A stretch of DNA of 64,000 bases from positions 52,114-116,113 of the forward strand of contig SUUY01000002.1 of assembly GCA_015062285.1 (NCBI GenBank), in the 5' to 3' direction. The notes under the pieces are model-generated. The model saw only the letters and a program-made list of their open reading frames with translations, searched no databases and was not told the DNA's origin. The position numbers and the translations under genes are program-made. The stretch comes from Alphaproteobacteria bacterium. GTDB taxonomy: Bacteria > Pseudomonadota > Alphaproteobacteria > RF32 > CAG-239. This document shows positions 26,329-38,787 of the stretch, piece after piece (the stretch's first letter is position 1; each line of letters opens with the position of its first letter).

Positions 26329-27591
26329 ATGAAAAAATTACTTGCTACAACTGCTTTGTGTGCTGTTTGTGTTTGGAGTGCGCAAGCCAATGCATCAGGA
26401 TATCAACTCAATGAATATTCAATTACCAATTTAGGACGCTCTTTTGCCGGTGCCGGCGTGGTTGGTGATGATTATTCGGCCATTGCTTATAACCCTGCCG
26501 GTATGACATTGAAGAAAACCGGTGCGCAGTTGAGTATGACTGTTGCCGAGGTGGCTTCGGAAATGAAAGGGCAAAACAATAAAGCCGGCCAACAAACTGA
26601 GATGGACTTTGGAGTACCTCTGCCGGCAGCATATGGACAATATCAAATCAATGATAAATGGTTTGTCGGTGCCGGTATCTATGCTCCTTACGGCTTGGCT
26701 ACAAAATATAAAAATGACAGTTATATTTCCGATAAGGCTATGAAGTCAATCTTAGAGGTGGTTGATTATAATGTATCTGCAGCATATAAACTAAACTCAA
26801 AATGGTCTTTTGGTGCAAGCTTTATAGCTCGCTATATTTATGGCAAGATGACAAATAATATTAACGGAGCTGCTTTCGAAGCTGGCAATACCAATATTGG
26901 TCGCAGTAAATTTGAGCTTGACGGTTGGACATATACCGGAACGTTGGGTGTTATGTATGAACATAGCGAAAACACTCGCTTTGGTTTATCATATAAACCA
27001 AAATCAGTACAAAGAGTAAAAGGTGATCACACTGTTTCATTAAACTCTCCTTATAGTATGCACCCCGTTTTAGGTGCTTATGCTGGTGTTTATCCTGATG
27101 GAAAAGCATCTCCTGATTTGCCGGAAACCGTTTTATTATCTGCATATCACAAACCATTTGAAAAAGTTGCATTTACCGGTTCAGTACGTTTTACTCGTTG
27201 GGGTGATTCCTTTAAGGATTTTGATATGACATCTAGCTTCACCAAAGGATTGAGATTAAAACCGGTTGATTATTCTTGGCAAGATACATGGACAATTTCT
27301 GCAGGTACTGAATATTACCTAAATGATAATTGGACATTGCGTTTTGGTACGGCGTGGGATCAATCACCTACTCCGGATAATGAACATCGTACGCATCGTA
27401 TTCCGGATTCAGACAGAATTTGGGCATCTGCCGGTGTGAGCTATCGTTATGAGAATATGCAATTTGATTTAGGATATGCTCATCTGTTTATGAAAAAATC
27501 GCATATTAGAAATAGTGTAAACGGAGATTATGACACCAAATATCGTGCTTATAGCAATATGTTTGGTTTAGGTTTCCAATACGACTTTTAA
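26329..27591 (+). CDS. fadL: OmpP1/FadL family outer-membrane transporter
   Basis: ASGYQLNEYS..LGRSFAG, YNPAGM, YAPYGLAT, RIPDSDRIW.S.G, C-terminal Y.F. Confidence 0.9.
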   Translation: MKKLLATTALCAVCVWSAQANASGYQLNEYSITNLGRSFAGAGVVGDDYSAIAYNPAGMTLKKTGAQLSMTVAEVASEMKGQNNKAGQQTEMDFGVPLPAAYGQYQINDKWFVGAGIYAPYGLATKYKNDSYISDKAMKSILEVVDYNVSAAYKLNSKWSFGASFIARYIYGKMTNNINGAAFEAGNTNIGRSKFELDGWTYTGTLGVMYEHSENTRFGLSYKPKSVQRVKGDHTVSLNSPYSMHPVLGAYAGVYPDGKASPDLPETVLLSAYHKPFEKVAFTGSVRFTRWGDSFKDFDMTSSFTKGLRLKPVDYSWQDTWTISAGTEYYLNDNWTLRFGTAWDQSPTPDNEHRTHRIPDSDRIWASAGVSYRYENMQFDLGYAHLFMKKSHIRNSVNGDYDTKYRAYSNMFGLGFQYDF

Positions 27592-27620
27592 GAAACCAAT
27601 ACCGTATATTAGACAACAAT

Positions 27621-27652
27621 ACAGCCGCCCATTCGGGCGGTTGTCTTGTTTT
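27621..27652 (+). terminator. Intrinsic terminator after fadL
   Basis: acagccgccc-attc-gggcggttgt then T-rich tail. Confidence 0.8.
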
Positions 27653-27697
27653 GATTGGCAGAAAAATAAAAAATTTAATCACAATGCAATTTTTAGC

Positions 27698-27726
27698 TGG
27701 ACATATAAAAAATTATCAGCTATAAA
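27698..27726 (+). promoter_or_regulatory. sigma70 promoter of tRNA-Phe
   Basis: TGGACA-17 bp-TATAAA just upstream of the tRNA. Confidence 0.6.
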
Positions 27727-27743
27727 CCTTTTCGATGGTTGAT

Positions 27744-27819
<76 letters not shown>

Positions 27820-27823
27820 TTTC

Positions 27824-27848
27824 AAACCCTAGGGAAACCTAGGGTTTT
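27824..27848 (+). terminator. Terminator after tRNA-Phe
   Basis: aaaccctagg-gaaa-cctagggtttt. Confidence 0.8.
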
Positions 27849-27967
27849 GTTGTATCTGAGCATTTTATTTTTTCACTCTCTGATTTTACCGGTAAGCAAA
27901 TAGTAAGCACAAACACTGTAATCTACTGTAAACAGTTATAATAATTTGTTAGTTTTTTGTAAAGTAT

Positions 27968-28015
27968 AAAGAAGCTGTTTATGGAGCCTACAAAACTCAA
28001 ATAAACAGCTTCTTT
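27968..28015. terminator. 15-bp inverted repeat, probable terminator of ORF 28024-28392
   Basis: aaagaagctgtttat ... ataaacagcttcttt. Confidence 0.6.
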
Positions 28016-28023
28016 CGTCATTA

Positions 28024-28392
28024 TCATATAGAAAAACAAACAACTCTTTCATCTTTGTTAAGATAAAAGACATTATCTGCGACTCTTTTGATAAAATCCT
28101 CATCTGTTTCAAATTTTTGTTTGTAATCGTCAAAATCTCCCCAATCTCCATTGATTATTGCATTATCGGCTACAATATCAGGTCGATTGTTGCCATAAAC
28201 TCCCATATCTTTTATGCATTCGCAGAAATATTCCCATAAACAATCAGGAATATGCCAATTATAATGATTTTCTACAAAATTTCGGCGGTTATCGAGTAAA
28301 TATATGTAATCTTCAATATCCATCTCTATTTTGATAGTGTTTGGTTGGTATAAATCACTACTGAAACATCTGTTTGTATTATATTCTGTCAT
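28024..28392 (-). CDS. Hypothetical acidic protein (mobile-element-like)
   Basis: 122-aa ORF with RBS aagga, own downstream hairpin, D/E- and aromatic-rich; no family recognised. Confidence 0.65.
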   Translation of the reverse strand: MTEYNTNRCFSSDLYQPNTIKIEMDIEDYIYLLDNRRNFVENHYNWHIPDCLWEYFCECIKDMGVYGNNRPDIVADNAIINGDWGDFDDYKQKFETDEDFIKRVADNVFYLNKDERVVCFSI

Positions 28393-28758
28393 GATTTTAA
28401 TCCTTGAGAATAACAGTTAATCCATGACATTTCCTTATAGAAATATCACAAATCACTTAAAAAATCCGCAAGGCAGACGATTTTTGCAGAACAATAATAA
28501 CACTTAACACAGGTAATATATTGATTTTACACAACATTCTAAAAATGATGTGTTATTATTTATGCAAACATATATATTTACTGAAAATTTATAGCATATC
28601 TGCTGTTCCGGTTAGCTTTATTCATATAAAAACATGTAACGATAACTATCCTAAAATAATAGTAATACTCCCCCCACTATTTCCCAAAACGGGGGTTAAT
28701 CTGCTTTAATAACCTTATATGACATCAATCACGCATTTTTTTTCGCATATATAATACT

Positions 28759-28792
28759 TGTCCACTTACTTATATATGAAAGTAAGTGGACA
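28759..28792. repeat. Perfect 13-8-13 palindrome upstream of hsdR
   Basis: TGTCCACTTACTT-ATATATGA-AAGTAAGTGGACA; related to 37175-37211. Confidence 0.9.
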
Positions 28793-28932
28793 GAGGTATA
28801 ATAGCTTCTGCTCCTTTTAGAATAAATATAAAATTGAAAGTGTATTTTACCCAACTTGTTAGAAGATTCAGCTTGATTTTCAAAGAATTGAGTATAAAAT
28901 TGCTGCCATATTGTAACTTTTGGAACTTTCAA

Positions 28933-31653
28933 ATGACCTCAACGCCTGAAGAAAAAGCAAGAAAAATTATAGACGAACAACTAATCAATGCTGGCTGGAT
29001 TATTCAAGACCGAAATGATTTTGATCGCACAGCTGGTATCGGAGTTGCTGTGCGTGAATTTTTGATGGATGACAATACCGAAGCCGACTATCTTTTGTTT
29101 GTTGATGGTAAAGCTTGCGGTATCATTGAAGCTAAAAAAGCCGGAGTTGCCCTTAGTGGTGTTGAAAATCAATCCCATGGTTATGCTTGCCATTTACCAG
29201 AATATGTAAAAAACTGGCTGATGCCACTTCCCTTTGTTTATGAAAGTACCGGTGATGAAACATTTTTCTGTGACGGACGCGATAAAATTTGCCGTTCTCG
29301 TCGCATTTTTGCTTTTCACTCCCCACAATCATTATATGAAATGTTGCAAGATAATGGTACTTTGCGCAATCGCTTACAAAATATGCCTGTATTAGAAAAA
29401 GGCTGCTTGCGTGACTGTCAATTTGAAGCAATTCAAGGTTTAGAAACTTCTTTAGCTCAAAATAATAAAAAAGCTCTTATTCAAATGGCTACAGGAGCAG
29501 GTAAAACCTTCACAGCTTGCAATTTTTCATATCGTTTGCTCAAATACGCAGGCGCAAAACGTATTTTATTTCTTGTTGACCGCAATAATCTTGGAAAACA
29601 AACAAAAAAAGAATTTGAAAATTTTCGCCTTCCTGATGAAAATCGTTTATTTCCGGAAGTTTATATTGCTCAACACCTCCAACAAAACCAAGTTGATAAA
29701 GACGCTAAGATTGTTATTACAACTATCCAACGTCTTTACTCCATGCTTAAAGGTGATGAAACTTATGATGAAGCCGATGAAGAAGTTTCTGCATATGAAT
29801 TAGGTTCATTAGGCAAACCTAAAGAGATTGCTTATAACCCTAAAGTAACTCCGGATTTCTTTGATTTTATCATAACTGATGAGTGTCACCGTAGTATTTA
29901 TGGTGATTGGCGCCAAGTTTTGGAGTATTTTGATGCATTTATTATCGGTTTAACTGCCACACCGTCAAAACAAACTTTTGGTTATTTTAATCGCAATATT
30001 GTGGCTGAATATCCTTATGAACGCTCGGTCGCCGACGGTGTTAATGTAGATTATCAAGTTTTGCGTATCAAAACAGCCATTAGTGAAAACGGTGGTAAAT
30101 TGGATAAAGATTTCCCTGTTCCTGTCCGTGATAAGAAAACTCGCAAAATCACTTATGAGCAGTTGGATGAGGATTTAGAATACAGCAAAAATGACTTGGA
30201 TCGCTCGGTTTTAGCAAAAAATCAAATCCGCACAATTATTGAATGCTATAAAAACTCGCTTTATACCGATTTGTTTCCCAATCGTGAACCAAATTTTGCG
30301 TGGACACCAAAAACGCTTATTTTTGCCAAAGATGACCATCATGCTGAAGAGATTGTCCGCATTGTTCGCGAAGTCTTTAACCAAGGTAACGATTTTTGCA
30401 AAAAAATCACTTATAATATTACCGGAGAAAAACCTGAGGAGCTGATTAAGCAGTTTAGAATTTCTCCGCAACCGCGTATTGCTGTTACCGTTGATATGAT
30501 TGCCACCGGAACGGATATTAAACCTTTGGAAGTTGTCATGTTTTTGCGAGATGTCCGTTCTTCGCTGTATTATGAGCAAATGAAAGGTCGAGGCGTTCGC
30601 TCGATTAATGAAACTGATCTCAAACAAGTTACACCAAATGCTGAAGGCAAAGGTTTCTTTTATCTGATTGATGCGGTCGGTGTAACCGAAAGTAAAAAAA
30701 CGGCTGCTCAACCTTTGGAGCGTAAACGTTCGGTTCCGTTGAAGAAAATGCTTGAACAAATTGCCCAAGGCAAAACAGATGATGATACTTTGAGCTCTGT
30801 TGCCAGTCGACTGGTTAATATTGAACGCAAGCTAAACGAAGCAGAAAAGCATAAAATTAAAGAATCAGCTGGTGGTTTATCTCTTCACGAGATTTCAGGG
30901 CAATTACTTAATGCGATTGATCCGGACAAACAAGAAGGAAAATCAGCTTCCGAAATTGAACAGATTAAAGAAAATGCTGTTAAACCTTTCAACAAACCGA
31001 GTTTTCGCAACATTTTAATGGATATGAGCGCTAAGACTGGCATTTATATTGATGAATTATCGCAAGATGAAGTAATTTCTGCAGATATCAATAGCGAAAA
31101 AGCTCATCATGTGGTTGAATCATTCAAAGAATTTATTGAAACCAACAAAGATGAAATTGATGCACTTTCTATCATTTACAACACGCAATATAGCAAACGA
31201 AAGTTGACTTATCAAAATATCCATGAGCTGGCAGATAAAATGCGTGAGGCACGACCACCGCTTGCTCCGATTGAAATTTGGCGAGCATTTGAACAGTTAG
31301 AAAAAGATAAGGTTCAGCATGTTAAAGATCCATCACGTTTATTGACTAATTTGGTGCAACTGGTGCGTTTTGCTATCGGTCAAGATGATCGGTTAGAAGA
31401 ATTTGATAAAGTCGCCAACCAACGTTTTAACCTTTGGAAAGGTCGCCAGCTCAAAAAAGGCATAACCTTTACCGATGAACAAAACGAGTGGCTGGAAAGA
31501 ATCAAAGACTACATTGTTGCCAATGTCAGTATGGATAAAGACGATATTCAAGAAGCTATGGACGATAAAGGGGGCATCCTCCGAGCTCGCGCCATTTTCG
31601 GATCCAATCTTGAACCTTTGTTAGCTGATTTAAGCTTGAGTCTGGTGGCATAA
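28933..31653 (+). CDS. hsdR: Type I restriction enzyme R subunit (EcoKI/EcoAI-like, EcoEI-type C-terminal domain)
   Basis: TPEEKAR.IID.QL..AGW, ADY.L...IIEAKK (PD-ExK), MATGAGKT, DECHRS, GLTATP, YEQMKGRG; start moved to ATG 28933. Confidence 0.95.
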   Translation: MTSTPEEKARKIIDEQLINAGWIIQDRNDFDRTAGIGVAVREFLMDDNTEADYLLFVDGKACGIIEAKKAGVALSGVENQSHGYACHLPEYVKNWLMPLPFVYESTGDETFFCDGRDKICRSRRIFAFHSPQSLYEMLQDNGTLRNRLQNMPVLEKGCLRDCQFEAIQGLETSLAQNNKKALIQMATGAGKTFTACNFSYRLLKYAGAKRILFLVDRNNLGKQTKKEFENFRLPDENRLFPEVYIAQHLQQNQVDKDAKIVITTIQRLYSMLKGDETYDEADEEVSAYELGSLGKPKEIAYNPKVTPDFFDFIITDECHRSIYGDWRQVLEYFDAFIIGLTATPSKQTFGYFNRNIVAEYPYERSVADGVNVDYQVLRIKTAISENGGKLDKDFPVPVRDKKTRKITYEQLDEDLEYSKNDLDRSVLAKNQIRTIIECYKNSLYTDLFPNREPNFAWTPKTLIFAKDDHHAEEIVRIVREVFNQGNDFCKKITYNITGEKPEELIKQFRISPQPRIAVTVDMIATGTDIKPLEVVMFLRDVRSSLYYEQMKGRGVRSINETDLKQVTPNAEGKGFFYLIDAVGVTESKKTAAQPLERKRSVPLKKMLEQIAQGKTDDDTLSSVASRLVNIERKLNEAEKHKIKESAGGLSLHEISGQLLNAIDPDKQEGKSASEIEQIKENAVKPFNKPSFRNILMDMSAKTGIYIDELSQDEVISADINSEKAHHVVESFKEFIETNKDEIDALSIIYNTQYSKRKLTYQNIHELADKMREARPPLAPIEIWRAFEQLEKDKVQHVKDPSRLLTNLVQLVRFAIGQDDRLEEFDKVANQRFNLWKGRQLKKGITFTDEQNEWLERIKDYIVANVSMDKDDIQEAMDDKGGILRARAIFGSNLEPLLADLSLSLVA

Positions 31654-31672
31654 AGGATAAGGAGTAGAGAAG

Positions 31673-32524
31673 ATGGAAGAAGGGACAAAAATGGAAAGTA
31701 TCCCACAGATAAAAAGATTGTTGTCTAACATACAAAAAAATTTGTCAGAACGTGGTTTCATGGCAAATAATGAATTTATTCAGGAGTGTCTTAACAATAA
31801 ACAATTTATAAATTTTGTCAGAATTGATACAGGTGAGTATACAGATTTAAAAAAGGCATTTAGTTTGTACAAAGAAAATCCCTCAATGAGTGCCCATAAT
31901 GCTCTTATTGCTCAATTGAAAAAACTCTGGAGTAATTTTGAGGTTTTTAATGAAGTGCTTAATACAACGATGCAACGTCTTGGCAATCAATATGAAAATA
32001 TAGCACAGGAAAAAATTCAGCAATTAGAAAACAATATAACAAAATCTAGGGAAATGCTTGGTGAGCAGGCAGGAAATGCCAATGCAAAAAAATATCAAGC
32101 TTATGCTGAAAAAAATAGAAAATCTGCATTTTGGTTATTTTGGTTTTCGGTTGCTATAATGGGTAGTTTAGCTATTTTTTCTGCATTTGCTTTGTATTTT
32201 ACAGAAATAACCTCTAAAGATTTATTCGTTAGAATTTCACTTTTCTTTGCAATTTTACTGCCTGCTTTTTTTATGATGAGAGAATCGAAAAAGCTCAAAG
32301 ATAAAGAGTTTCAATACACAGATATGGCTTATCGCATTATGACCTCGACCCCTTATATTGATGGATTATACATTTCAGAAGAAGAAAAAGCAAAACTTAA
32401 AGCTGAATTGGTCAAAGATTTCTTCGGGCGACCGATTGAATGTCGTGATGATGGAGGTTTGCCTCCTATTGAAAATATTTGTGAAATTATCAAGGCTTGT
32501 TTGAGCAATTGCAGAAGAGACTAA
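31673..32524 (+). CDS. Hypothetical coiled-coil + 2-TM membrane protein inside the RM operon
   Basis: Strong RBS taaggag; helical N-terminus, two hydrophobic segments (AFWLFWFSVAIMG..; ISLFFAILLPAFF), then RESKK...PYIDGL...LKAELVKDFFG. Confidence 0.85.
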   Translation: MEEGTKMESIPQIKRLLSNIQKNLSERGFMANNEFIQECLNNKQFINFVRIDTGEYTDLKKAFSLYKENPSMSAHNALIAQLKKLWSNFEVFNEVLNTTMQRLGNQYENIAQEKIQQLENNITKSREMLGEQAGNANAKKYQAYAEKNRKSAFWLFWFSVAIMGSLAIFSAFALYFTEITSKDLFVRISLFFAILLPAFFMMRESKKLKDKEFQYTDMAYRIMTSTPYIDGLYISEEEKAKLKAELVKDFFGRPIECRDDGGLPPIENICEIIKACLSNCRRD

Positions 32525-32537
32525 GGAGACTAAAGGA

Positions 32538-34004
32538 ATGAACTACAAGATAAGAGATTTTTTGTTATTGGCAGGATTGTGGAGTATTTTCCTTATAACA
32601 CCTTATATTATATCTTTTTGGGATATAAGTTATAAAGATCTTCTCGTGAGGTCGTGGTATATATATGCCGGTTTATCAATATTAACAATATTTTATCTGT
32701 TATATCCAGAAATCTTAAGAGGATTTTGCCAAAAGATATGTGACAGACAGATTGAGAATTTCGTTGGAGTATCTCCCGAAAATTCAAATACTGAGGAAGT
32801 AAACAAAATCAGAAATGATTTAAGAAATGAAAAATTAATTAGACCATCTACCAAAACTATTTCGGATGATCATAAAAAAAATATTAAAAAAGACTCTAAA
32901 CTTAGAGAATTATACAATTCTTTTAATAATGAAAAATATGAGAAAGTTATCTTAGATTCATTAAACTATATGAAAGAAATTAGCATAGATAAGAAAAAAG
33001 TTCCGTATGCTGTGTTAGCTGAAATGGCTTACTCTATGATAGAAGAGGAAAAAGATTACAATAAAGAAGATAGAATCTCTGTATTAAGAATTATTATAAA
33101 TCATTATGATGCTGTTACTCCAGAAATTTATGTAAATGGTTTGCTAAATTTAGCCTCTATATACAGCGATACAGACAATAATGATGCTGTATTAAAATTA
33201 ACATATAAAGCTATATATATATCAAAGCAAAATAAATTGGATTCCTCGTTGCTTAGTTATGCATACTATATACAAACTTTTGTTTTTTTAGTACAAAAAA
33301 AACTATCACAGGCGCTAGCAGCAGCTAAAGAAGGATTGAAATATGCTGATGAAACTAAAGAAGCATTATTCTACTACCTGGAAGCAATCATCTATTTTAA
33401 TTTTTATAATAATACAGAAATGGCAGAACAGTATGCAAAATTAAGTTGGAGTAAATTAACATCGGCTGACACATTTAGTGGTTTATTGGTTCAAATATAT
33501 TATTTTTCATTGTTTTTTAACCATAAATATGATGAGGCTTGTGAATTTTTAAGCATTTACTGTAATTCAGATACAAGTTCGACACAGATTAGAAATCTCC
33601 CTTATTTATTAGTTAAGTGCAATCGAATTGAAGAGGCTGAAAAGTTAGCAGAAGAATATAAGAAACAACATGAAAATCAGCAATTAGATTCCATAAATAA
33701 CGCTCTAGCTATGATAGCAATGCGTAATAGTGATTATGAAAAAGCTATATATTTATTTACAGAAATATTACCATCATTTGAAAGTGGTGATACCAACTAT
33801 GAAAAATATTTTTATGCTGAAATATTATATAATCGCGGGATTTGTTATTTAAAATTAAATAATTTTGCTAAAGCAAAAATTGATATTAATAAAGCTATGG
33901 AATTAAATTTTGATGATGTTGATAGCGATGTTTTAGAAAATTTATTTAATTACGACATCCAAAATAGTGCAAAAATGGAATTGAAAGCTATAGAAGATGC
34001 CTAA
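32538..34004 (+). CDS. Hypothetical N-terminal 2-TM + TPR-repeat protein inside the RM operon
   Basis: Two N-terminal hydrophobic helices; TPR-like repeats, e.g. AEILYNRGICYLKLNNFAKAKIDINKAMELN; stop overlaps the hsdS start. Confidence 0.85.
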   Translation: MNYKIRDFLLLAGLWSIFLITPYIISFWDISYKDLLVRSWYIYAGLSILTIFYLLYPEILRGFCQKICDRQIENFVGVSPENSNTEEVNKIRNDLRNEKLIRPSTKTISDDHKKNIKKDSKLRELYNSFNNEKYEKVILDSLNYMKEISIDKKKVPYAVLAEMAYSMIEEEKDYNKEDRISVLRIIINHYDAVTPEIYVNGLLNLASIYSDTDNNDAVLKLTYKAIYISKQNKLDSSLLSYAYYIQTFVFLVQKKLSQALAAAKEGLKYADETKEALFYYLEAIIYFNFYNNTEMAEQYAKLSWSKLTSADTFSGLLVQIYYFSLFFNHKYDEACEFLSIYCNSDTSSTQIRNLPYLLVKCNRIEEAEKLAEEYKKQHENQQLDSINNALAMIAMRNSDYEKAIYLFTEILPSFESGDTNYEKYFYAEILYNRGICYLKLNNFAKAKIDINKAMELNFDDVDSDVLENLFNYDIQNSAKMELKAIEDA

Positions 34005-35265
34005 TAAACTTCCGTTAAATTGGTGTGAGTGTAAATTTGAGGATGTTCTAGATTATGAACAGCCGACAAAATACATTGTGGAAAATACAGATTATCAAGA
34101 CCATGGAACTGCCGTATTAACAGCAGGAAAAAGCTTTATTCTCGGTTATACAAACGAAAAAGAGGGAATATTTGATGCATCAAAAGAGCCTGTTATTATA
34201 TTTGATGATTTTACCACAGCTTCAAAAATCGTAAAATTTCCATTTAAGGTAAAATCATCGGCGATGAAAATTCTACATCCAAAAACGAATATTAATATTG
34301 ATTATATTTATTATTTGATGCAAACAATTCACTACGAAAATGATACTCATAAACGATACTGGATTTCTGAATATGCAAAGCAATTTATTGCTTTACCACC
34401 GCTTAGAGAACAAGAAAGGATTGTTGAGAAGATTGAGGCTTTATTTGCGGATATTGACGAAGGAATGGAAAATCTTAAAACAGCACAAGCTCAAATCAAA
34501 CAGTATCGCCAATCCGTCCTCAAATCTGCTTTTGAAGGAAAACTTTACAAAACCACCGAATGGAAAGAAGTTGACATAACAAAAATAATTGCAAAAGAAA
34601 AGAATGCATTGAAAGCAGGTCCGTTTGGTAGTGCGTTAAAAAAAGAAATTTATGTTGAAAAAGGATATAAAATATACGGTCAGGAACAAGTTATTGCACA
34701 AGATCCGTTTTATGGAGATTATTATATCGATAAAAATAAATATGAACAATTAATATCTTGTAAAATTAAACCACATGATATTTTGATTAGTTTAGTTGGA
34801 ACTATTGGAAAAGTTCTAATTTTACCTAATAATATAGAAGAAGGCATTATTAATCCACGATTGTTAAAAGTAACCTTAGATTTTGATCAATATTTGCCAG
34901 AATTTTTTAAATTCTATTTTGAAAGCCAATATTTACGCAGTTTATTTAAGATGAAAGCTCATGGAGCAACAATGGATGTACTAAATTTAAGTATCTTAAA
35001 AGAACTACCTTTTCCTCTTCCAACACTCCCTGAACAAAAACGCATTGTTGAAGAGATTGAAAAACGCTTTGCTGTGGCAGATAAATTGGAAAAAGCGGTT
35101 AATGAGGGTTTAGAAAAAGCTGATAAACTTAAACAATCTATCTTAAAAAAAGCCTTTGAGGGCAAACTCGTTGCACAAAACCCTAACGACGAACCAGCCT
35201 CCATCCTCCTCGCCCGCATCAAAAAAGAAAACCAATCCCACCCCAAAGGAAAGAAAAAATGTTAA
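33997..35265 (+). CDS. hsdS: Type I RM specificity subunit
   Basis: LP.NW start, two TRDs each followed by a conserved helix (LPPLREQERIVEKIEALFA; LPTLPEQKRIVEEIEKRFA), QS.LK.AFEGKL twice. Confidence 0.95.
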   Translation: MPNKLPLNWCECKFEDVLDYEQPTKYIVENTDYQDHGTAVLTAGKSFILGYTNEKEGIFDASKEPVIIFDDFTTASKIVKFPFKVKSSAMKILHPKTNINIDYIYYLMQTIHYENDTHKRYWISEYAKQFIALPPLREQERIVEKIEALFADIDEGMENLKTAQAQIKQYRQSVLKSAFEGKLYKTTEWKEVDITKIIAKEKNALKAGPFGSALKKEIYVEKGYKIYGQEQVIAQDPFYGDYYIDKNKYEQLISCKIKPHDILISLVGTIGKVLILPNNIEEGIINPRLLKVTLDFDQYLPEFFKFYFESQYLRSLFKMKAHGATMDVLNLSILKELPFPLPTLPEQKRIVEEIEKRFAVADKLEKAVNEGLEKADKLKQSILKKAFEGKLVAQNPNDEPASILLARIKKENQSHPKGKKKC

Positions 35266-35597
35266 AAACAATAAAGACTATAAAAGAAAACATAGAGACT
35301 GCTATTGAAATAGCAGATAAACTTAAAGATTTAGAATTAAAAGAAACTGTTTTAAACCTTAAAGAACAAATTCTCAGTATTAGAGAAGAGAATATTTCTC
35401 TGAAAGAACTGATAGCTTCAAATAATCAAAAAGAAAATTTAATCTATAAAAATAATATGTATTGGAAAAAATTAGATGATGGCTCAGAAGATGGTCCGTA
35501 TTGCTCAGGGTGTTATGATACCAAAAAGACTTTAGTTCGTATGCATGTTCACCCACGTGGAAACATTTGTCCTTCATGTAAACAAACAATATATTAG
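35259..35597 (+). CDS. Hypothetical coiled-coil protein with C-terminal CxxC...CxxC zinc ribbon
   Basis: Heptad N-terminus; GPYCSGCYD...CPSC; start overlaps the hsdS stop. Confidence 0.8.
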   Translation: MLKTIKTIKENIETAIEIADKLKDLELKETVLNLKEQILSIREENISLKELIASNNQKENLIYKNNMYWKKLDDGSEDGPYCSGCYDTKKTLVRMHVHPRGNICPSCKQTIY

Positions 35598-35608
35598 GTA
35601 AAAATAAA

Positions 35609-37060
35609 ATGACTGAAAATAACCTCGTAACCAAAGTTTGGAATTATGCAACCATCTTAAAAGATGCCGGTGTCGTTTATATGGATTATGTCGCTCAGTT
35701 GACTTATCTGTTGTTCTTAAAAATGGATGACGAACGCACCACACTTCTTGGTGAAAAATCTTTACTTCCTGAGAAATATCGTTGGAATAAACTCAAGTCT
35801 CTTTCTGGTATTGATTTAGAAACACAATATTCCGAAACCTTGACCGCTCTTTCTAAGATGAATGGTATTATCGGAGCTATTTATACCAAAGCATCTAACA
35901 AAATCAATGAACCATCAAAATTACAAAGACTGGTATCATTAATTGATGGTGAAAACTGGCTCGGACTTGATGTTGATGTTAAAGGTGCTGTTTATGAAGG
36001 TTTGTTAGAGAAAAATGCAACCGAAACCAAAGCCGGAGCCGGTCAATATTTTACACCACGCCCGTTAATTAAGGCTATGGTTGAGGTTATGCGTCCGACA
36101 CCTGAAACGACGGTTACCGATCCGGCATGCGGAACCGGTGGATTTTTGCTTGCAGCTTATGATTATATGCGCTCTCAAACTAGCGATAAACTGAAAATAA
36201 AAGAGTTGAAAGAAAATAAACTTTCCGGAAATGATATTACACCGCTTGTTGTCAGCCTTTGCACCATGAATTTGTATCTGCGTGGTATCGGTGGAAACAA
36301 AGCTCCTATTAGAGAGTGTGATTCTTTAATGAATGCCGGTGATAAACGTTACGATATGGTACTGACCAATCCACCGTTTGGCAAAAAAGGTTCTCTTAAA
36401 ATTATGGGAGAAGATGGGTCAGTTACCACAGAAAAAGAAGAATACAATCGAGAAGACTTTATTGCCTCAACGTCAAATAAGCAAATCAACTTCGTGCAAC
36501 ATATTATGACTATCTTAAATTCTCATGGTCGTGCTGCGGTGGTTGTTCCTGACAATGTATTATTTGAAGGTGGTGCCGGAGAAAAAGTTCGCCGTCGTTT
36601 ACTCAATGAATTTAATTTACATACTATCTTGCGATTACCTACCGGTATTTTTTACGCGCAAGGAGTCAAAGCTAATGTGTTATTCTTTGATAAATACCCA
36701 CCACTTGATAATGGTCATCGTACACAAGACGTTTGGTTTTATGATTTGCGTACTAATATAAATTTGAGTTTAGTAACCAATCCGCTTAGTGATGTACATT
36801 TGGCTAATTTTATTAAATGCTATAACGCAGATAATATTGCTAAACGCGATGAAAGTGAACGTTTTAAGAAGTTTTCTTATGATGAGATTATTAATCGTGA
36901 CAAGGTTAGCCTTGATATTACTTGGCTTAAAGATGAAAGTTTAGAAAATCTTGAAAATCTACCTGATCCGGAAATTTTAGCTGATGAAATCATTGAGAAT
37001 TTAGAAACAGCACTAAATTCATTCAAAGATGTTATGATTGAATTACAAAAGGCAGAATAA
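35609..37060 (+). CDS. hsdM: Type I RM N6-adenine methyltransferase subunit
   Basis: QLTYLLFLKM, GAGQYFTPRPLI, DPACGTGGFL, TNPPFG, LHTILRLPTGIFYAQGVKANVLFF. Confidence 0.97.
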   Translation: MTENNLVTKVWNYATILKDAGVVYMDYVAQLTYLLFLKMDDERTTLLGEKSLLPEKYRWNKLKSLSGIDLETQYSETLTALSKMNGIIGAIYTKASNKINEPSKLQRLVSLIDGENWLGLDVDVKGAVYEGLLEKNATETKAGAGQYFTPRPLIKAMVEVMRPTPETTVTDPACGTGGFLLAAYDYMRSQTSDKLKIKELKENKLSGNDITPLVVSLCTMNLYLRGIGGNKAPIRECDSLMNAGDKRYDMVLTNPPFGKKGSLKIMGEDGSVTTEKEEYNREDFIASTSNKQINFVQHIMTILNSHGRAAVVVPDNVLFEGGAGEKVRRRLLNEFNLHTILRLPTGIFYAQGVKANVLFFDKYPPLDNGHRTQDVWFYDLRTNINLSLVTNPLSDVHLANFIKCYNADNIAKRDESERFKKFSYDEIINRDKVSLDITWLKDESLENLENLPDPEILADEIIENLETALNSFKDVMIELQKAE

Positions 37061-37174
37061 TTTTTTATAACTTAAGTACAACACTTAAACCCGAGTAAAC
37101 TCGGGAAGTCTTTTCATAATCAAACCTTACAGGTTTGACATGCTTCGCGTGAGGGTATTTTTCATAATACTTTA

Positions 37175-37211
37175 TCTGTCCAATACTTTCTATATATAAG
37201 TATTGGACAGA
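37175..37211. repeat. Perfect 14-9-14 palindrome downstream of hsdM
   Basis: TCTGTCCAATACTT-TCTATATAT-AAGTATTGGACAGA; related to 28759-28792. Confidence 0.9.
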
Positions 37212-37221
37212 CATATAAGTA

Positions 37222-38199
37222 TTAATAATTGTTTGTTCCACTATTCAAAACACTCAAAATCACTTGCTTCATCGTGTCTTTTTCTTCCGGTTTGCTTGAA
37301 GCAATAAGAAGTGTTAAAGCAAAAAGAGTAGCATTATCTAATATTGGAGCTCCATTTTGATAAAGCATGTTGTTTTTTTCCAAGAAATGAATAAAACATG
37401 CAGCTCCGATACGTTTATTGCCATCTGTAAAACTATGATTTTTAACCAACATGTATAAAAGCATAGCTGCCTTTTCCTCTAATGTCGGATAACAATCTTC
37501 TCCATCAAAGGTTTGATAGATCTGATTTATTGAACTATCAAAGCTGTCATCTTTAGGATTAGCAAAAACATCTGAACCAAATTCCGGTTTCATCTTAGAA
37601 ATAAGTTCTAAATATTCTTCTCTAGTTATTTTAACAGCTTCTCGCTTGGTTAAACCTTTGGTTGCAAGGGTTCTATTGTCATAATCATCCAATAGACCTA
37701 AGCCTTTAGCAAAAACTTCTAATACTTTTGCCAAATTTTGAGCATCATCAATATTTTTTGCCTGAGATGTAATAGAACGAGTGAGCAAATTGAGTGAATT
37801 TCTTAAAACTTCGATTTGTTCTTGTTTTTCGGCTAGTCTTTTTTCGTTAATAGCATAACCGGATACCAAATATTGCTTCAAAACATTTGTTGCCCACCTA
37901 CGAAATCTACTTGCTTCTGTAGAATTTGCTCGATATCCTACTGCTAAAACAACATCTAAATTAAAAAATTCAACTGGCTTATCGGAATTTGCAATGTGCA
38001 TTTTTTGCACATTGCTTTTTTGTTCAAGCTCGCCAGTCTTAAAAATATTATTGATGTGCCTTGATACACCGGATCGATCAATACGAAACAACTTAGCAAT
38101 TTCTTTTTTATTAAGCCAAATTGTATCTGTTTGATAATCTATTTGAACATCAATATCACCATGTGGGGTATAATAGATTTCTAAACTGTTGGTTGTCAT
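37222..38199 (-). CDS. RhuM / Fic-Doc family fusion protein
   Basis: RhuM motifs TIWL...IA.LF, SRHINNIFK.GEL, NLDVVLAVGYR.NS, FRRWA..VLKQYL..GYAINEKRL; Fic/Doc motif KNHSFTDGNKRIGA. Confidence 0.92.
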   Translation of the reverse strand: MTTNSLEIYYTPHGDIDVQIDYQTDTIWLNKKEIAKLFRIDRSGVSRHINNIFKTGELEQKSNVQKMHIANSDKPVEFFNLDVVLAVGYRANSTEASRFRRWATNVLKQYLVSGYAINEKRLAEKQEQIEVLRNSLNLLTRSITSQAKNIDDAQNLAKVLEVFAKGLGLLDDYDNRTLATKGLTKREAVKITREEYLELISKMKPEFGSDVFANPKDDSFDSSINQIYQTFDGEDCYPTLEEKAAMLLYMLVKNHSFTDGNKRIGAACFIHFLEKNNMLYQNGAPILDNATLFALTLLIASSKPEEKDTMKQVILSVLNSGTNNY

Positions 38200-38235
38200 A
38201 TTCTACATCTTCTAATTACTTATATCATTTACATT

Positions 38236-38264
38236 AGAATATTTACAAACATTTTAAGTGTCAA
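38236..38264 (-). promoter_or_regulatory. sigma70 promoter for rhuM-fic
   Basis: Minus strand TTGACA-17 bp-TATTCT. Confidence 0.6.
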
Positions 38265-38457
38265 AAGCTTTCTAGAGATTTACCCCGAAAACAAGATGAT
38301 AACAATGTGTCAGTATAAAACCAGAGCAATGGTTGTTTTTGCTTAGCAATCCCTACTCGCACCACTTGTTTTAAATGCACTCGGTAGAGTGCTTTTTTTA
38401 TGCTCTCGCCATTCAGGCGGCGCTTCAGGTTCATCGTCAATGTTGGAGGAATATACA

Positions 38458-38496
38458 AAAGAGCCAATGTATGCATTCCGCATACATTGGCTCTTT
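38458..38496. terminator. 17-bp perfect inverted repeat, probable terminator of 38503-38787
   Basis: aaagagccaatgtatgc-attcc-gcatacattggctcttt. Confidence 0.75.
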
Positions 38497-38502
38497 CTTT
38501 TT

Positions 38503-38787
38503 CTATATCTTATTCCATAATCTGCCTATGAACAAGATAATCACATAAACAGGATATCCCCATAGGATGTATCCTGTAAATAAACTAAGGCACCTAAATA
38601 CCTTAGAATTTCTACGATTTCTTAAAGATGGGAGGAACACGTGCTTAAAGCTATATGCACTAACGTATTTCCCCATCTTTGGGCTCCAAACCTTTGTGCG
38701 ATTTAGATTCCTTGAAGCAAGTATTATTGCTCCAATTACACCCCATAGCAGCACGAGGGCTGCAATAATGATTAAAATTGTTTTCAT
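38503..38787 (-). CDS. Small basic 2-TM hypothetical membrane protein
   Basis: N- and C-terminal hydrophobic helices, followed directly by a strong hairpin. Confidence 0.65.
   Translation of the reverse strand: MKTILIIIAALVLLWGVIGAIILASRNLNRTKVWSPKMGKYVSAYSFKHVFLPSLRNRRNSKVFRCLSLFTGYILWGYPVYVIILFIGRLWNKI

Follow-up and report, generated by a model that had tools for sequence, protein, structure and literature searches.

Palindromes flanking a type I restriction-modification module belong to a family of island palindromes that mark cargo junctions and may be recognised by Rep

Overview

The type I restriction-modification (RM) module in the 64,000-nucleotide stretch of DNA analysed here (the window) is bracketed by two perfect palindromes, sites 1 and 2, which belong to a family of 13 distinct copies associated with integrative islands. 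We tentatively favour, at close to even chances, the reading that both sites are orphaned copies of a cis-acting element of a PICI/P4-like island, an origin-type site that would be recognised by the island Rep protein and would also mark the junctions between cargo modules. The mobile unit is the entire tRNA-Phe island, which moves by means of its integrase and the repeated tRNA 3' end; the palindromes are not its ends. Instead, the palindromes mark the places at which defence genes enter and leave a satellite-like island, and there is no sign that they act as lox-like switches.

Two perfect palindromes in the window

Site 1 (28759-28792, unstranded), the distal palindrome of the cargo slot, is a perfect 13-8-13 inverted repeat; 140 nt separate its right edge from the hsdR ATG at 28933. 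Site 2 (37175-37211, unstranded), a perfect 14-9-14 inverted repeat between the RM module and a Fic module, starts 115 nt past the hsdM stop at 37060, and its other end is 10 nt short of position 37222, where the minus-strand RhuM-Fic gene stops. An earlier sequence-only reading had given the same geometries and, approximately, the same distances to hsdR and hsdM. The word that it saw shared in the left flanks is present at both sites, but it overlaps the first palindrome base at site 1 and ends a few bases before site 2.

Within the window, TGTCCA-N18-26-TGGACA matched twice, against 0.00 matches expected from 100 shuffles. The genome-wide search that the earlier reading had proposed, conducted with the looser TGTCCA-N16-30-TGGACA over all 10 contigs (1,416,325 bp) of the genome of the window, G000, returned sites 1 and 2 only. 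This genome contains 133 perfect inverted repeats with arms of at least 12 nt and spacers of 3-12 nt, and among the 80 listed the majority have A-run/T-run arms of the terminator type, which sites 1 and 2 lack. As single-stranded DNA, site 1 folds at -13.3 kcal/mol (z = -7.4) and site 2 at -15.7 kcal/mol (z = -8.0), and none of 200 shuffles folded as well as the two sites. The palindromes are absent from the other 68 hsdM loci (1.15 Mb scanned in all). A dispersed REP/MITE-type repeat, a possibility the earlier reading had itself raised, was rejected, with two copies in 1.42 Mb and none in 268 of the 282 genomes of the bacterial family.

In the sister species G009 and G066, site 1 has the symmetric spacer ATATATAT and a left arm one T short, leaving a 1-nt bulge; the asymmetric 8-nt spacer described earlier holds for G000 and is specific to it with respect to these two species. 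One compensated pair separates site 1 from the Rep-adjacent palindrome of G112. Site 2 is invariant at 37 of 37 positions across the three species, while the surrounding 250-column alignment averages 88% identity.

A palindrome family conserved in its pairing

The pattern TGTCC-N7-10-TATATA-N7-11-GGACA matched 14 of the 282 family genomes, and the reversed pattern, used as a control, matched none. Palindromic copies occur in 13 of the 14 (12 perfect, degenerate in G118), while the match in G244 is non-palindromic and was set aside as chance. The family consensus comprises TGTCC, 7-8 variable self-complementary bases, a (TA)n centre and GGACA, and usually spans 33 bp. Positions 1-5 are identical in all 13 distinct copies, positions 6-12 are variable and show at most four pair types each, and the (TA)n centre is always present; the spacers, many of them symmetric, range from 7 to 13 nt, and what is conserved is a total length of about 33 bp (exactly 33 bp in 10 of 13). 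Pairing of the inner arms is kept in 85 of 91 cells, compared with 46.5 +/- 5.1 when partners are swapped, and none of 10,000 shuffles reached 85, the 13 copies being drawn from related islands and not independent. The inner arms are conserved in pairing only, suggesting a cruciform or hairpin. Sites 1 and 2 are members of this family, which bears out the earlier view that they are related.

The tRNA-Phe island and its cargo

Both sites lie within a decayed integrative island (27827..38318, unstranded), a remnant in which int, the AlpA-like gene, Rep and the far att repeat are missing. The tRNA-Phe (GAA) gene at 27744..27819 on the plus strand (ARAGORN; Rfam 69.4 bits) is the integration target and the left island junction, and the right edge is set by 38319..38425 (plus strand), the chromosomal sequence that comes after tRNA-Phe where relatives have no island. 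In the empty-site genomes G008, G005, G020 and G003, the homologue of 38319-38363 begins 164-205 nt past tRNA-Phe; one contig of run X1 joins 27826 to 38319, and homology to the intact island of G066 ends at 38154. The island ends are 0.93 and 1.1 kb beyond the palindromes.

The intact islands of G009 and G066 carry a P4-type integrase (Arm-DNA-bind_3 plus Phage_integrase) at the tRNA-distal end, an AlpA-like HTH gene and an AAA_25 helicase-like Rep gene, and they repeat the last 47-53 nt of tRNA-Phe at the far end. The backbone order is int, a gene of about 235 aa, the AlpA-like HTH gene, Rep with a C-terminal HTH, cargo, a gene of about 120 aa and the tRNA. The window contains no integrase gene and no Rep gene (homologue search, E <= 1e-20). 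Its tRNA-proximal backbone arm is a conserved 122-aa gene (28024..28392, minus strand), whose product is 61% identical to the 112-aa product of the G112 gene adjoining tRNA-Arg and 68% identical to a 113-aa G151 protein, with no match in Pfam, NCBIfam, PADLOC or PHROGs. The islands occur in uncultured gut bacteria.

The RM operon (28933..37060, plus strand; Pfam) consists of hsdR (28933-31653), followed by a 283-aa ORF and a 488-aa TPR protein, hsdS (33997-35265), followed by a 112-aa ORF, and hsdM (35609-37060); its middle part, 31653-35603, is swapped among G000, G009 and G066. A candidate sigma-70-like hsdR promoter (28873..28900, plus strand; TTGATT, 16 nt, TAAAAT), proposed from a consensus scan alone, lies outside the palindrome and inside the RM block, and the block common to loci L043 and L046 starts at 28863 with similar promoter-like hexamers. 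Three small hairpins 3' of hsdM (37090..37151, plus strand), the first of which is a canonical terminator, are also part of the RM block, and their region is kept to 37154 in G009, G066, L043 and L046. The RhuM/Bro-N plus Fic/Doc gene (37222..38199, minus strand; Pfam; PADLOC PDC-S23, E = 1e-118) forms a separate cargo module; between it and the Rep gene, G066 and G009 have a third palindrome.

Palindromes at cargo junctions

Junction copies number three each in G066, G009 and G151 and two each in G112, G288 and G106, and copy number equals the number of cargo modules plus one. The modules bounded in this manner include two unrelated RM families, the Fic gene, a PLD-transpeptidase pair and an SNase-like operon. 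In G151, but not in G288, there is a different type I RM module together with one palindrome; the edges of this indel lie 0-3 nt from palindromes, which supplies the locus with one palindrome fewer that the earlier reading had suggested looking for. The distal palindrome of these two genomes is 97% identical over 39 nt amid non-homologous flanks. The corresponding indel-to-palindrome distances are 9 nt for G066 against G000 and G009, 6 nt for G094 against G103, and about 20 nt for G103 against empty sites. Outside the islands, a solo copy travels with the SNase-like operon in a 1.64-kb chromosomal insertion between rpmJ and acpS (G103 and G094), a site that is empty in G105, G117 and G127; only one end of this insertion bears a palindrome.

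Most copies start 10-15 nt past a stop codon, namely those of Fic in the window, Rep, G151 hsdR, the PLD-transpeptidase gene, the last G112 ORF and the G106 DUF805 gene. Several copies are flanked by convergent genes, while site 1 and its G151 counterpart are in divergent upstream regions.

The proposal that sites 1 and 2 are cassette boundaries needs dividing: they are at module junctions, and in relatives each cargo block is set apart by family copies, but the movable unit is the whole tRNA-Phe island. In L043 and L046, moreover, the same RM block adjoins tRNA-Phe with neither palindrome.

Rep-adjacent copies and the origin-type reading

The Rep gene occurs in 9 of the 282 family genomes, and each of the nine has a perfect inverted repeat 9-15 nt past its stop, of the TGTCC type in eight. 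Inverted short repeats also lie directly past the stop in 8 of 9 distant Rep homologues inspected (four perfect by a computed scan, four read by eye), where they form 2+2 iteron-like arrays. The repeat motif shifts with lineage, the TGTCCCA and GTTCC types accompanying an HTH recognition helix that begins with 'SKS' and other types accompanying other residues there. PHROGs groups the AAA_25 domain with primase-helicases and DnaB-like helicases; no primase domain was detected in Rep, and its HTH_7 and HTH_38 matches, at 22.2-24.4 bits, are under the Pfam cut-offs.

Satellite phage P4, an element with a P4-type integrase, carries two related clusters of Rep-binding repeats, ori and crr, kilobases apart; these clusters are direct iterons, unlike the single palindromes at cargo junctions described here. 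PICI and SaPI origins are placed immediately 3' of rep, with repeats flanking an AT-rich region, in elements with a one-directional layout of int, AlpA-like regulator, rep and accessory genes (PMC6092414). The island shares this layout and the cis site 3' of rep: the primary copies are directly 3' of the initiator gene at all nine Rep loci, those of the window being secondary, and pairing arms surround an AT-rich, potentially melting centre in all 13 copies. It differs in having one compact perfect palindrome of about 33 bp in place of two iteron sets, a helicase-like AAA_25 Rep with a short HTH, and copies that recur between cargo modules; no capsid, terS, packaging or interference gene and no helper phage was recognised. 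A further parallel is the pRN1-type origin, a stem-loop conserved in structure and variable in sequence, just 3' of the primase-helicase gene and needed for replication (PMC4234260). It differs in belonging to archaeal plasmids, in its length of about 100 nt, in its Rep family and in having no repeated copies.

From these features we infer that Rep may bind the palindromes and that they may serve as origins. The invariant outer TGTCC/GGACA would be the likely contacts of the Rep HTH, the inner arms would need only to pair, forming a cruciform or hairpin, and the (TA)n centre would melt easily. The primary copy is 13-15 nt past the Rep stop, the place of PICI-type origins, with further copies at every cargo-slot junction and cargo gain or loss at or within about 20 nt of them. 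With the int-Rep arm deleted in the window, sites 1 and 2 would be orphans flanking an RM module that presumably works without them. This fits best with binding by one dimeric protein, which the sequence-only reading had offered as its alternative. The perfection of both sites and the invariance of site 2 in a genome devoid of Rep suggest either very recent decay or a Rep-independent function.

Several observations sit outside an origin role, which would leave unexplained the two to three copies per island and the position of most copies 10-15 nt past a cargo-operon stop. Counting against it are the 5 of 13 palindrome-bearing genomes with no Rep homologue at E <= 1e-20 (G000, G094, G100, G103 and G118), the solo chromosomal copy, and the absence of extra copies from the cargo of the distant islands G057, G358, G408 and G561. 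It is conceivable, though on balance unlikely, that the origin-type palindrome doubles as a docking site, at which operons carrying one palindrome each would be captured, stacked and released, with an occasional chromosomal landing, through hairpin or cruciform substrates and a non-IntI protein, possibly the helicase-HTH Rep. If so, the islands would hold a non-integron cassette system for defence and other operons.

Alternative explanations

The sequence-only reading had proposed a lox/FRT-like pair that inverts or excises the 8.4-kb RM cassette with a tyrosine recombinase in trans, and this now appears highly improbable. The pair does bracket the RM operon, and site 1 of G000 has the 13-bp arms and 8-nt spacer of loxP and FRT. 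The partners, however, differ in arm length (13 against 14 nt, with an indel), arm sequence and spacer (ATATATGA against TCTATATAT, 8 against 9 nt), relatives do not keep the geometry, site 1 being bulged in G009 and G066, and the island moves by its tRNA att repeats. Contigs of four runs bridge both sites in the reference orientation, with no strand-change, inversion, excision, circular or site-to-site joints, a weak test in that assembled contigs drop rare forms. There is also no cognate recombinase; only the P4-type integrase, which acts at the tRNA, accompanies the motif consistently.

That last point also bears on dedicated cassette recombination sites, one per module, recombined at their outer bases and possibly on folded single strands, by the island integrase, a host Xer or serine recombinase, or the Rep-HTH protein. 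Integron attC sites are palindromes with conserved outer cores and variable pairing inner parts, arrayed one per cassette and usually at the cargo 3' end, and in Acinetobacter plasmids, pdif modules recombined by XerC/XerD bracket genes, including toxin-antitoxin pairs, with short palindromic sites while the recombinases are encoded elsewhere. The fixed outer core, the pairing inner arms, the count of modules plus one, the variety of bounded cargo, the palindrome-edged indel of G151 and G288 with its conserved distal copy, and the operon with a 3' palindrome that landed between rpmJ and acpS all resemble these systems, and G000 has serine (two full and one partial match) and tyrosine (four) recombinase genes elsewhere. 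Nevertheless, this account is somewhat unlikely. The attC arrangement is matched in form, but the distal copy follows no gene and the first adjoins a replication gene; the modules, as multi-gene operons, bring promoters and terminators of their own, and the sites are perfectly paired, about 33 bp long and free of extrahelical bases, with a core presumably unlike those of attC. An IntI-type integrase, attI and Pc, the neighbours of an integron array, were not recognised, the integrase of the intact islands being the P4-type one at the tRNA-distal end; relative to pdif, sequence and geometry are unlike dif-type sites and the islands are chromosomal. Hybrid arms are absent among the copies, the contigs of the four runs contain no circular or deleted forms (again weak evidence), the rpmJ-acpS insertion has its single palindrome, and the lineage-specific iteron-like repeats past distant Rep genes would go unexplained.

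RNA hairpins that end or insulate the transcription units of a mobile gene pool, travelling with their operons, are a still more doubtful explanation. An intrinsic terminator class was rejected, as the copies have no consistent U-tract (T-run in DNA) on either flank, the all-A/T loops of 7-13 nt, invariant TGTCC and constant 33 bp are unlike terminators, and site 1 and its G151 counterpart are not 3' of a gene. The terminators listed for the rest of the genome consist of an A-run, a GC stem and a T-run, and hsdM has its own canonical terminator before site 2. Consistent with hairpins are the positions just past stop codons and between convergent genes, the strongly maintained pairing, and a terminator scan in which site 1 received a terminator-like score for the minus strand. 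Additionally, the arm extension of site 2 is an A-T pair in G009, a G-C pair in G066 and an A/C mismatch in G000; in the Fic transcript, read from the minus strand, this mismatch would become a G-U pair.

Two Palindromes Beside the Type I RM Operon

Two perfect inverted repeats, site 1 (28759-28792, 13-8-13) and site 2 (37175-37211, 14-9-14), were re-found exactly as the sequence-only reading had described them. The gene order runs from thrS and a FadL-type gene through tRNA-Phe (27744-27819) and a minus-strand 122-aa ORF to site 1, followed by hsdR, a 283-aa ORF, a TPR protein, hsdS, a 112-aa ORF, hsdM, site 2, a minus-strand RhuM-Fic gene and the Bat operon. Site 1 precedes the hsdR ATG (28933) by 140 nt. 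Site 2 starts 115 nt past the stop codon of hsdM, and at its other end 10 nt separate it from the RhuM-Fic stop. Since a small ORF reading towards site 1 (28521-28709) is dissimilar to its positional counterpart in the related genome G288, site 1 is not claimed to follow a gene.

The window has two occurrences of TGTCCA-N18-26-TGGACA, where 100 shuffles gave an expectation of 0.00, and the looser N16-30 form finds only these two sites in the genome's 1,416,325 bp. Perfect inverted repeats with arms of at least 12 nt number 133 in this genome; the 80 listed are mostly terminator-type hairpins of A-runs and T-runs, from which sites 1 and 2 differ. Single-strand folding is strong (z = -7.4 and -8.0, respectively). 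All 37 positions of site 2 are invariant across three species, in an alignment that averages 88% identity around it, and site 1 lies one compensated pair apart from the copy next to the Rep gene (AAA_25 helicase-like, with a C-terminal HTH) of G112. Rfam searches of the region returned the tRNA alone, the palindromes giving chance sub-threshold matches to miRNA and snoRNA families. Two other hairpins were observed nearby: a perfect one with 17-bp arms at 38458-38496 (C5:90571-90609 of the genome) and a terminator-like one at 38377-38392.

A Decayed tRNA-Phe Island

The closest public hsdM loci belong to metagenome-assembled genomes of uncultured gut Alphaproteobacteria. G009 and G066, two species of the same genus, share with the window a block of about 90% identity that extends from tRNA-Phe across both palindromes and into the Fic gene. 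There the block continues with a 352-aa AAA_25 protein, an HTH_17 (AlpA/excisionase-like) gene, a 235-aa ORF and a tyrosine integrase carrying an Arm-DNA-bind_3 domain, and its far end is marked by an exact repeat, 47-53 nt long, of the 3' end of tRNA-Phe. Island-free tRNA-Phe loci occur in the relatives G008, G005, G020 and G003, where a homologue of 38319-38363 lies 164-205 nt past the tRNA, and one contig of sequencing run X1 joins 27826 directly to 38319. The tRNA repeat, the integrase of the relatives and the empty sites together identify the mobile unit as a tRNA-Phe integrative island spanning about 27827-38318. Its integrase-Rep arm is lost in the window, where homology to G066 stops at 38154 and the second tRNA repeat is absent, so the RM operon can be annotated as part of a decayed tRNA-Phe island. 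The palindromes lie 0.93 and 1.1 kb inward of the island ends.

Several details accompany this island. The RhuM/Bro-N and Fic/Doc gene (37222-38199, minus strand) has a match (E = 1e-118) to PDC-S23, which PADLOC lists as a candidate single-gene defence family. Owing to the truncation of the island at 38154, the first ~15 codons of the gene and its upstream region depart from those in G066 and G009. The protein atlas yielded nothing usable on the 122-aa protein (best score 0.84). To the right of the island, a segment of ~107 nt (38319-38425) that includes a small hairpin has homologues directly downstream of tRNA-Phe in many congeneric species, with three tandem copies in G005 and two in G024.

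The RM Operon Without the Palindromes

At L043 and L046, tRNA-Phe loci from other species, the part shared with the window comprises only 28863-37154, in addition to the tRNA and ~160 nt after it. This block is the RM operon together with its hairpin terminators and promoter-like region; neither palindrome is present at the two loci, nor are Fic and the 122-aa gene, and no integrase or Rep was found within 10 kb. Sites 1 and 2 fall 70 and 21 nt beyond the edges of the shared block. Because the block occurs without them, the RM operon has no need of the palindromes, and a role for them as a C-protein-like operator of the RM operon was rejected, given that the block occurs there complete with its promoter-like region.

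The interior of the operon also varies. In the window, 31653-35603 holds the 283-aa ORF (a weak sub-threshold SLATT match), the 488-aa TPR protein, hsdS and the 112-aa ORF, and in G009 and G066 this stretch is replaced by AbiJ-like and AAA_15/OLD-like genes and another hsdS, with hsdR and hsdM remaining ~90% identical. Between hsdR and hsdM, the palindrome-free operon of L043 (5290-10000) has a KwaB-like gene and an AAA_21/RloB (OLD-like) pair. The exchange in G009 and G066 looks like a swap of cargo within cargo, probably through recombination in the flanking genes. Cargo exchange in satellite-like islands is mostly attributed to recombination in flanking conserved genes.

A Palindrome Family at Cargo Junctions

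A protein search of 282 genomes of the bacterial family identified an AAA_25 homologue in nine, the genome of the window not among them. In all nine, a perfect inverted repeat lies 9-15 nt past the stop of the AAA_25 gene, and in eight it is of the TGTCC ... (TA)n ... GGACA type, G123 having other arms. The census pattern TGTCC-N7-10-TATATA-N7-11-GGACA occurs in 14 of the 282 genomes (reversed-pattern control, 0), including a non-palindromic match in G244 and a degenerate one in G118. Among 13 distinct copies, which stem from related islands and are not independent, positions 1-5 are invariant, the length is exactly 33 bp in 10, and the variable positions 6-12 pair within the copy in 85 of 91 cells; swapping partners gave 46.5 +/- 5.1 paired cells, and none of 10,000 shuffles reached 85. 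Strict motif scans of metagenome contigs (two loci) and viral contigs (one locus) returned only non-palindromic, unrelated matches. An hsdM-based search of genome contigs yielded 70 loci, with palindromes only in the two that have the G009/G066-type island, and no such palindrome follows the more distant Fic homologues of G012, G069 and G072.

Read from integrase to tRNA, the islands of G066 and G009 contain Rep, a palindrome, Fic, a palindrome, the EcoEI-type RM system, a palindrome, ~360 nt, the 122-aa gene and tRNA-Phe. In G151, the order is Rep, a palindrome, DUF805 and PLD-transpeptidase genes, a palindrome, a HindI-type RM system that differs from the EcoEI-type one and includes TIR and nucleotidyltransferase genes, a palindrome, a 113-aa gene and, by homology, tRNA-Phe. 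G288 has the same order but lacks the RM module and one of the palindromes; G112 has Rep, a palindrome, eight ORFs including SNase-like genes, a palindrome, a 112-aa gene and tRNA-Arg; and G106 has Rep, a palindrome, RM and other genes, and a palindrome. Across these islands the small tRNA-adjacent gene shows 61-68% identity and is thus counted as backbone. It follows that the cargo slot has a palindrome at either edge, with one more at each internal module junction.

Indels cluster at the same points. The right flank of the single G288 palindrome runs straight into the DUF805 module, and in G151 the RM module and a second palindrome stand between the equivalent palindrome and the DUF805 module; the shared palindrome is 97% identical over 39 nt amid non-homologous flanks. 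G066 has a 410-bp extra segment 9 nt from site 1, and the G094 copy has a 1.5-kb aaRS-gene segment 6 nt away. G103 and G094 have an insertion of 1.64 kb, made up of a palindrome and an SNase-like operon, that separates the rpmJ terminator from acpS, and the site is empty in G105, G117 and G127; the insertion edge lies ~20 nt from the palindrome, and the opposite end bears no second copy. The earlier proposal of boundary sites thus holds in part: palindromes do mark cargo junctions, as the G151/G288 indel illustrates, but the island ends are tRNA-Phe repeats. Between site 1 and hsdR, G066 also has an extra 109-aa ORF (L031:15820-16149) with a 17-nt promoter-like word, which recurs beside the G151 and G288 palindromes at the start of the DUF805 module.

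Rep and the Possible Roles of the Palindrome

In PHROGs, the AAA_25 domain of Rep aligns with phage primase-helicases and DnaB-like helicases, and its C-terminus resembles the resolvase-type HTH_7 and HTH_38 models below Pfam cut-offs. Homologues occur in 17 genomes of a 401-genome sample of the class, at 31-46% identity apart from G009; relatives in IMG/VR reach only 24-31%, and a PDB sequence search gave 0 matches. Perfect inverted repeats lie at the 3' end of the homologue gene in 4 of 19 scanned loci. Two direct and two inverted short repeats surround a central spacer just past the stop in eight of nine distant loci inspected, four of the eight having been read by eye; G426 has no repeats there. 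The repeat motif varies by lineage, and in this small sample a recognition helix starting with 'SKS' accompanies the (T)GTCC and GTTCC types, while other residues accompany other motifs. The palindrome half-site may resemble the Tn3 resolvase half-site consensus.

According to PMC6092414, the PICI origin lies immediately 3' of rep, with repeats flanking an AT-rich region and int-alpA-rep in the same direction; the Rep islands share this layout, with repeats just 3' of rep. In pRN1, according to PMC4234260, a stem-loop origin conserved in structure lies 3' of the primase-helicase gene. The reading favoured here, tentatively, is a Rep-recognised, cruciform-forming, origin-type element, for which we put the chances at about even, if slightly below. 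Such an element would account for the invariant outer bases, constant length, meltable centre and inner-arm pairing, as well as for its set position past the Rep stop and for repeats of distant islands that differ by lineage. An origin alone leaves unexplained why secondary copies lie at cargo-operon 3' ends, why a solo copy lies in the chromosome and why indel edges cluster at the sites. These points keep alive a role as true cassette-recombination sites, which we consider possible yet rather unlikely. A plain terminator or insulator would suit the position and the pairing but leaves the sequence features unaccounted for, and is improbable.

That a lox/FRT-type pair inverts or excises the 8.4-kb RM block, as first proposed, is not supported and is very improbable. 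Over 27500-38700, assembled contigs of four of the 24 runs, in which rare forms would be missed, bridge both sites in the reference orientation with no strand-change or site-to-site joint listed, and the mobile unit is the tRNA-Phe island. Recombinases on other contigs of the genome comprise two full and one partial serine recombinase matches and four tyrosine recombinases; no extra half-sites were found in the integrase-Rep part of intact islands. One X1 contig has a G009-type variant of site 1. Contigs from other samples diverge at 28618 (X1, X9) and 37237 (X8), keeping the sequence on the palindrome side, which suggests further island variants. The breakpoints are near but outside the sites: 28618 precedes site 1 by 140 nt, and 37237 is 26 nt beyond site 2.

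As the window has no Rep, its palindromes are orphans, relics of an island backbone system rather than an RM switch. Both are nevertheless perfect, and site 2 is invariant, which implies either recent decay or a Rep-independent function. On the favoured reading, the palindrome would be the origin-type repeat of a satellite-like island; what is unusual is its distribution, which marks cargo junctions. In this island family of uncultured gut Alphaproteobacteria, every cargo junction carries a short recognisable DNA element, and a Fic gene, two type I RM systems unrelated to each other and further operons are bounded by it. No description of junction palindromes in PICI/P4-like islands was found in a non-exhaustive search of the literature. 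If the element is a Rep-bound origin, metagenomes could be searched for these islands, and for their cargo slots, by a simple signature; a further role in exchange would make it a new means of cassette capture, distinct from integrons.

G100 (C32; L158, 3035-14874) also has a palindrome on its own, with the same sequence as the distal G112 copy. On one side of it is an SNase-like operon, which adjoins a Cas9-like gene; on the other, ~570 nt away, is a small serine recombinase gene. The locus continues with a D12 methylase and an AlwI-type restriction pair.
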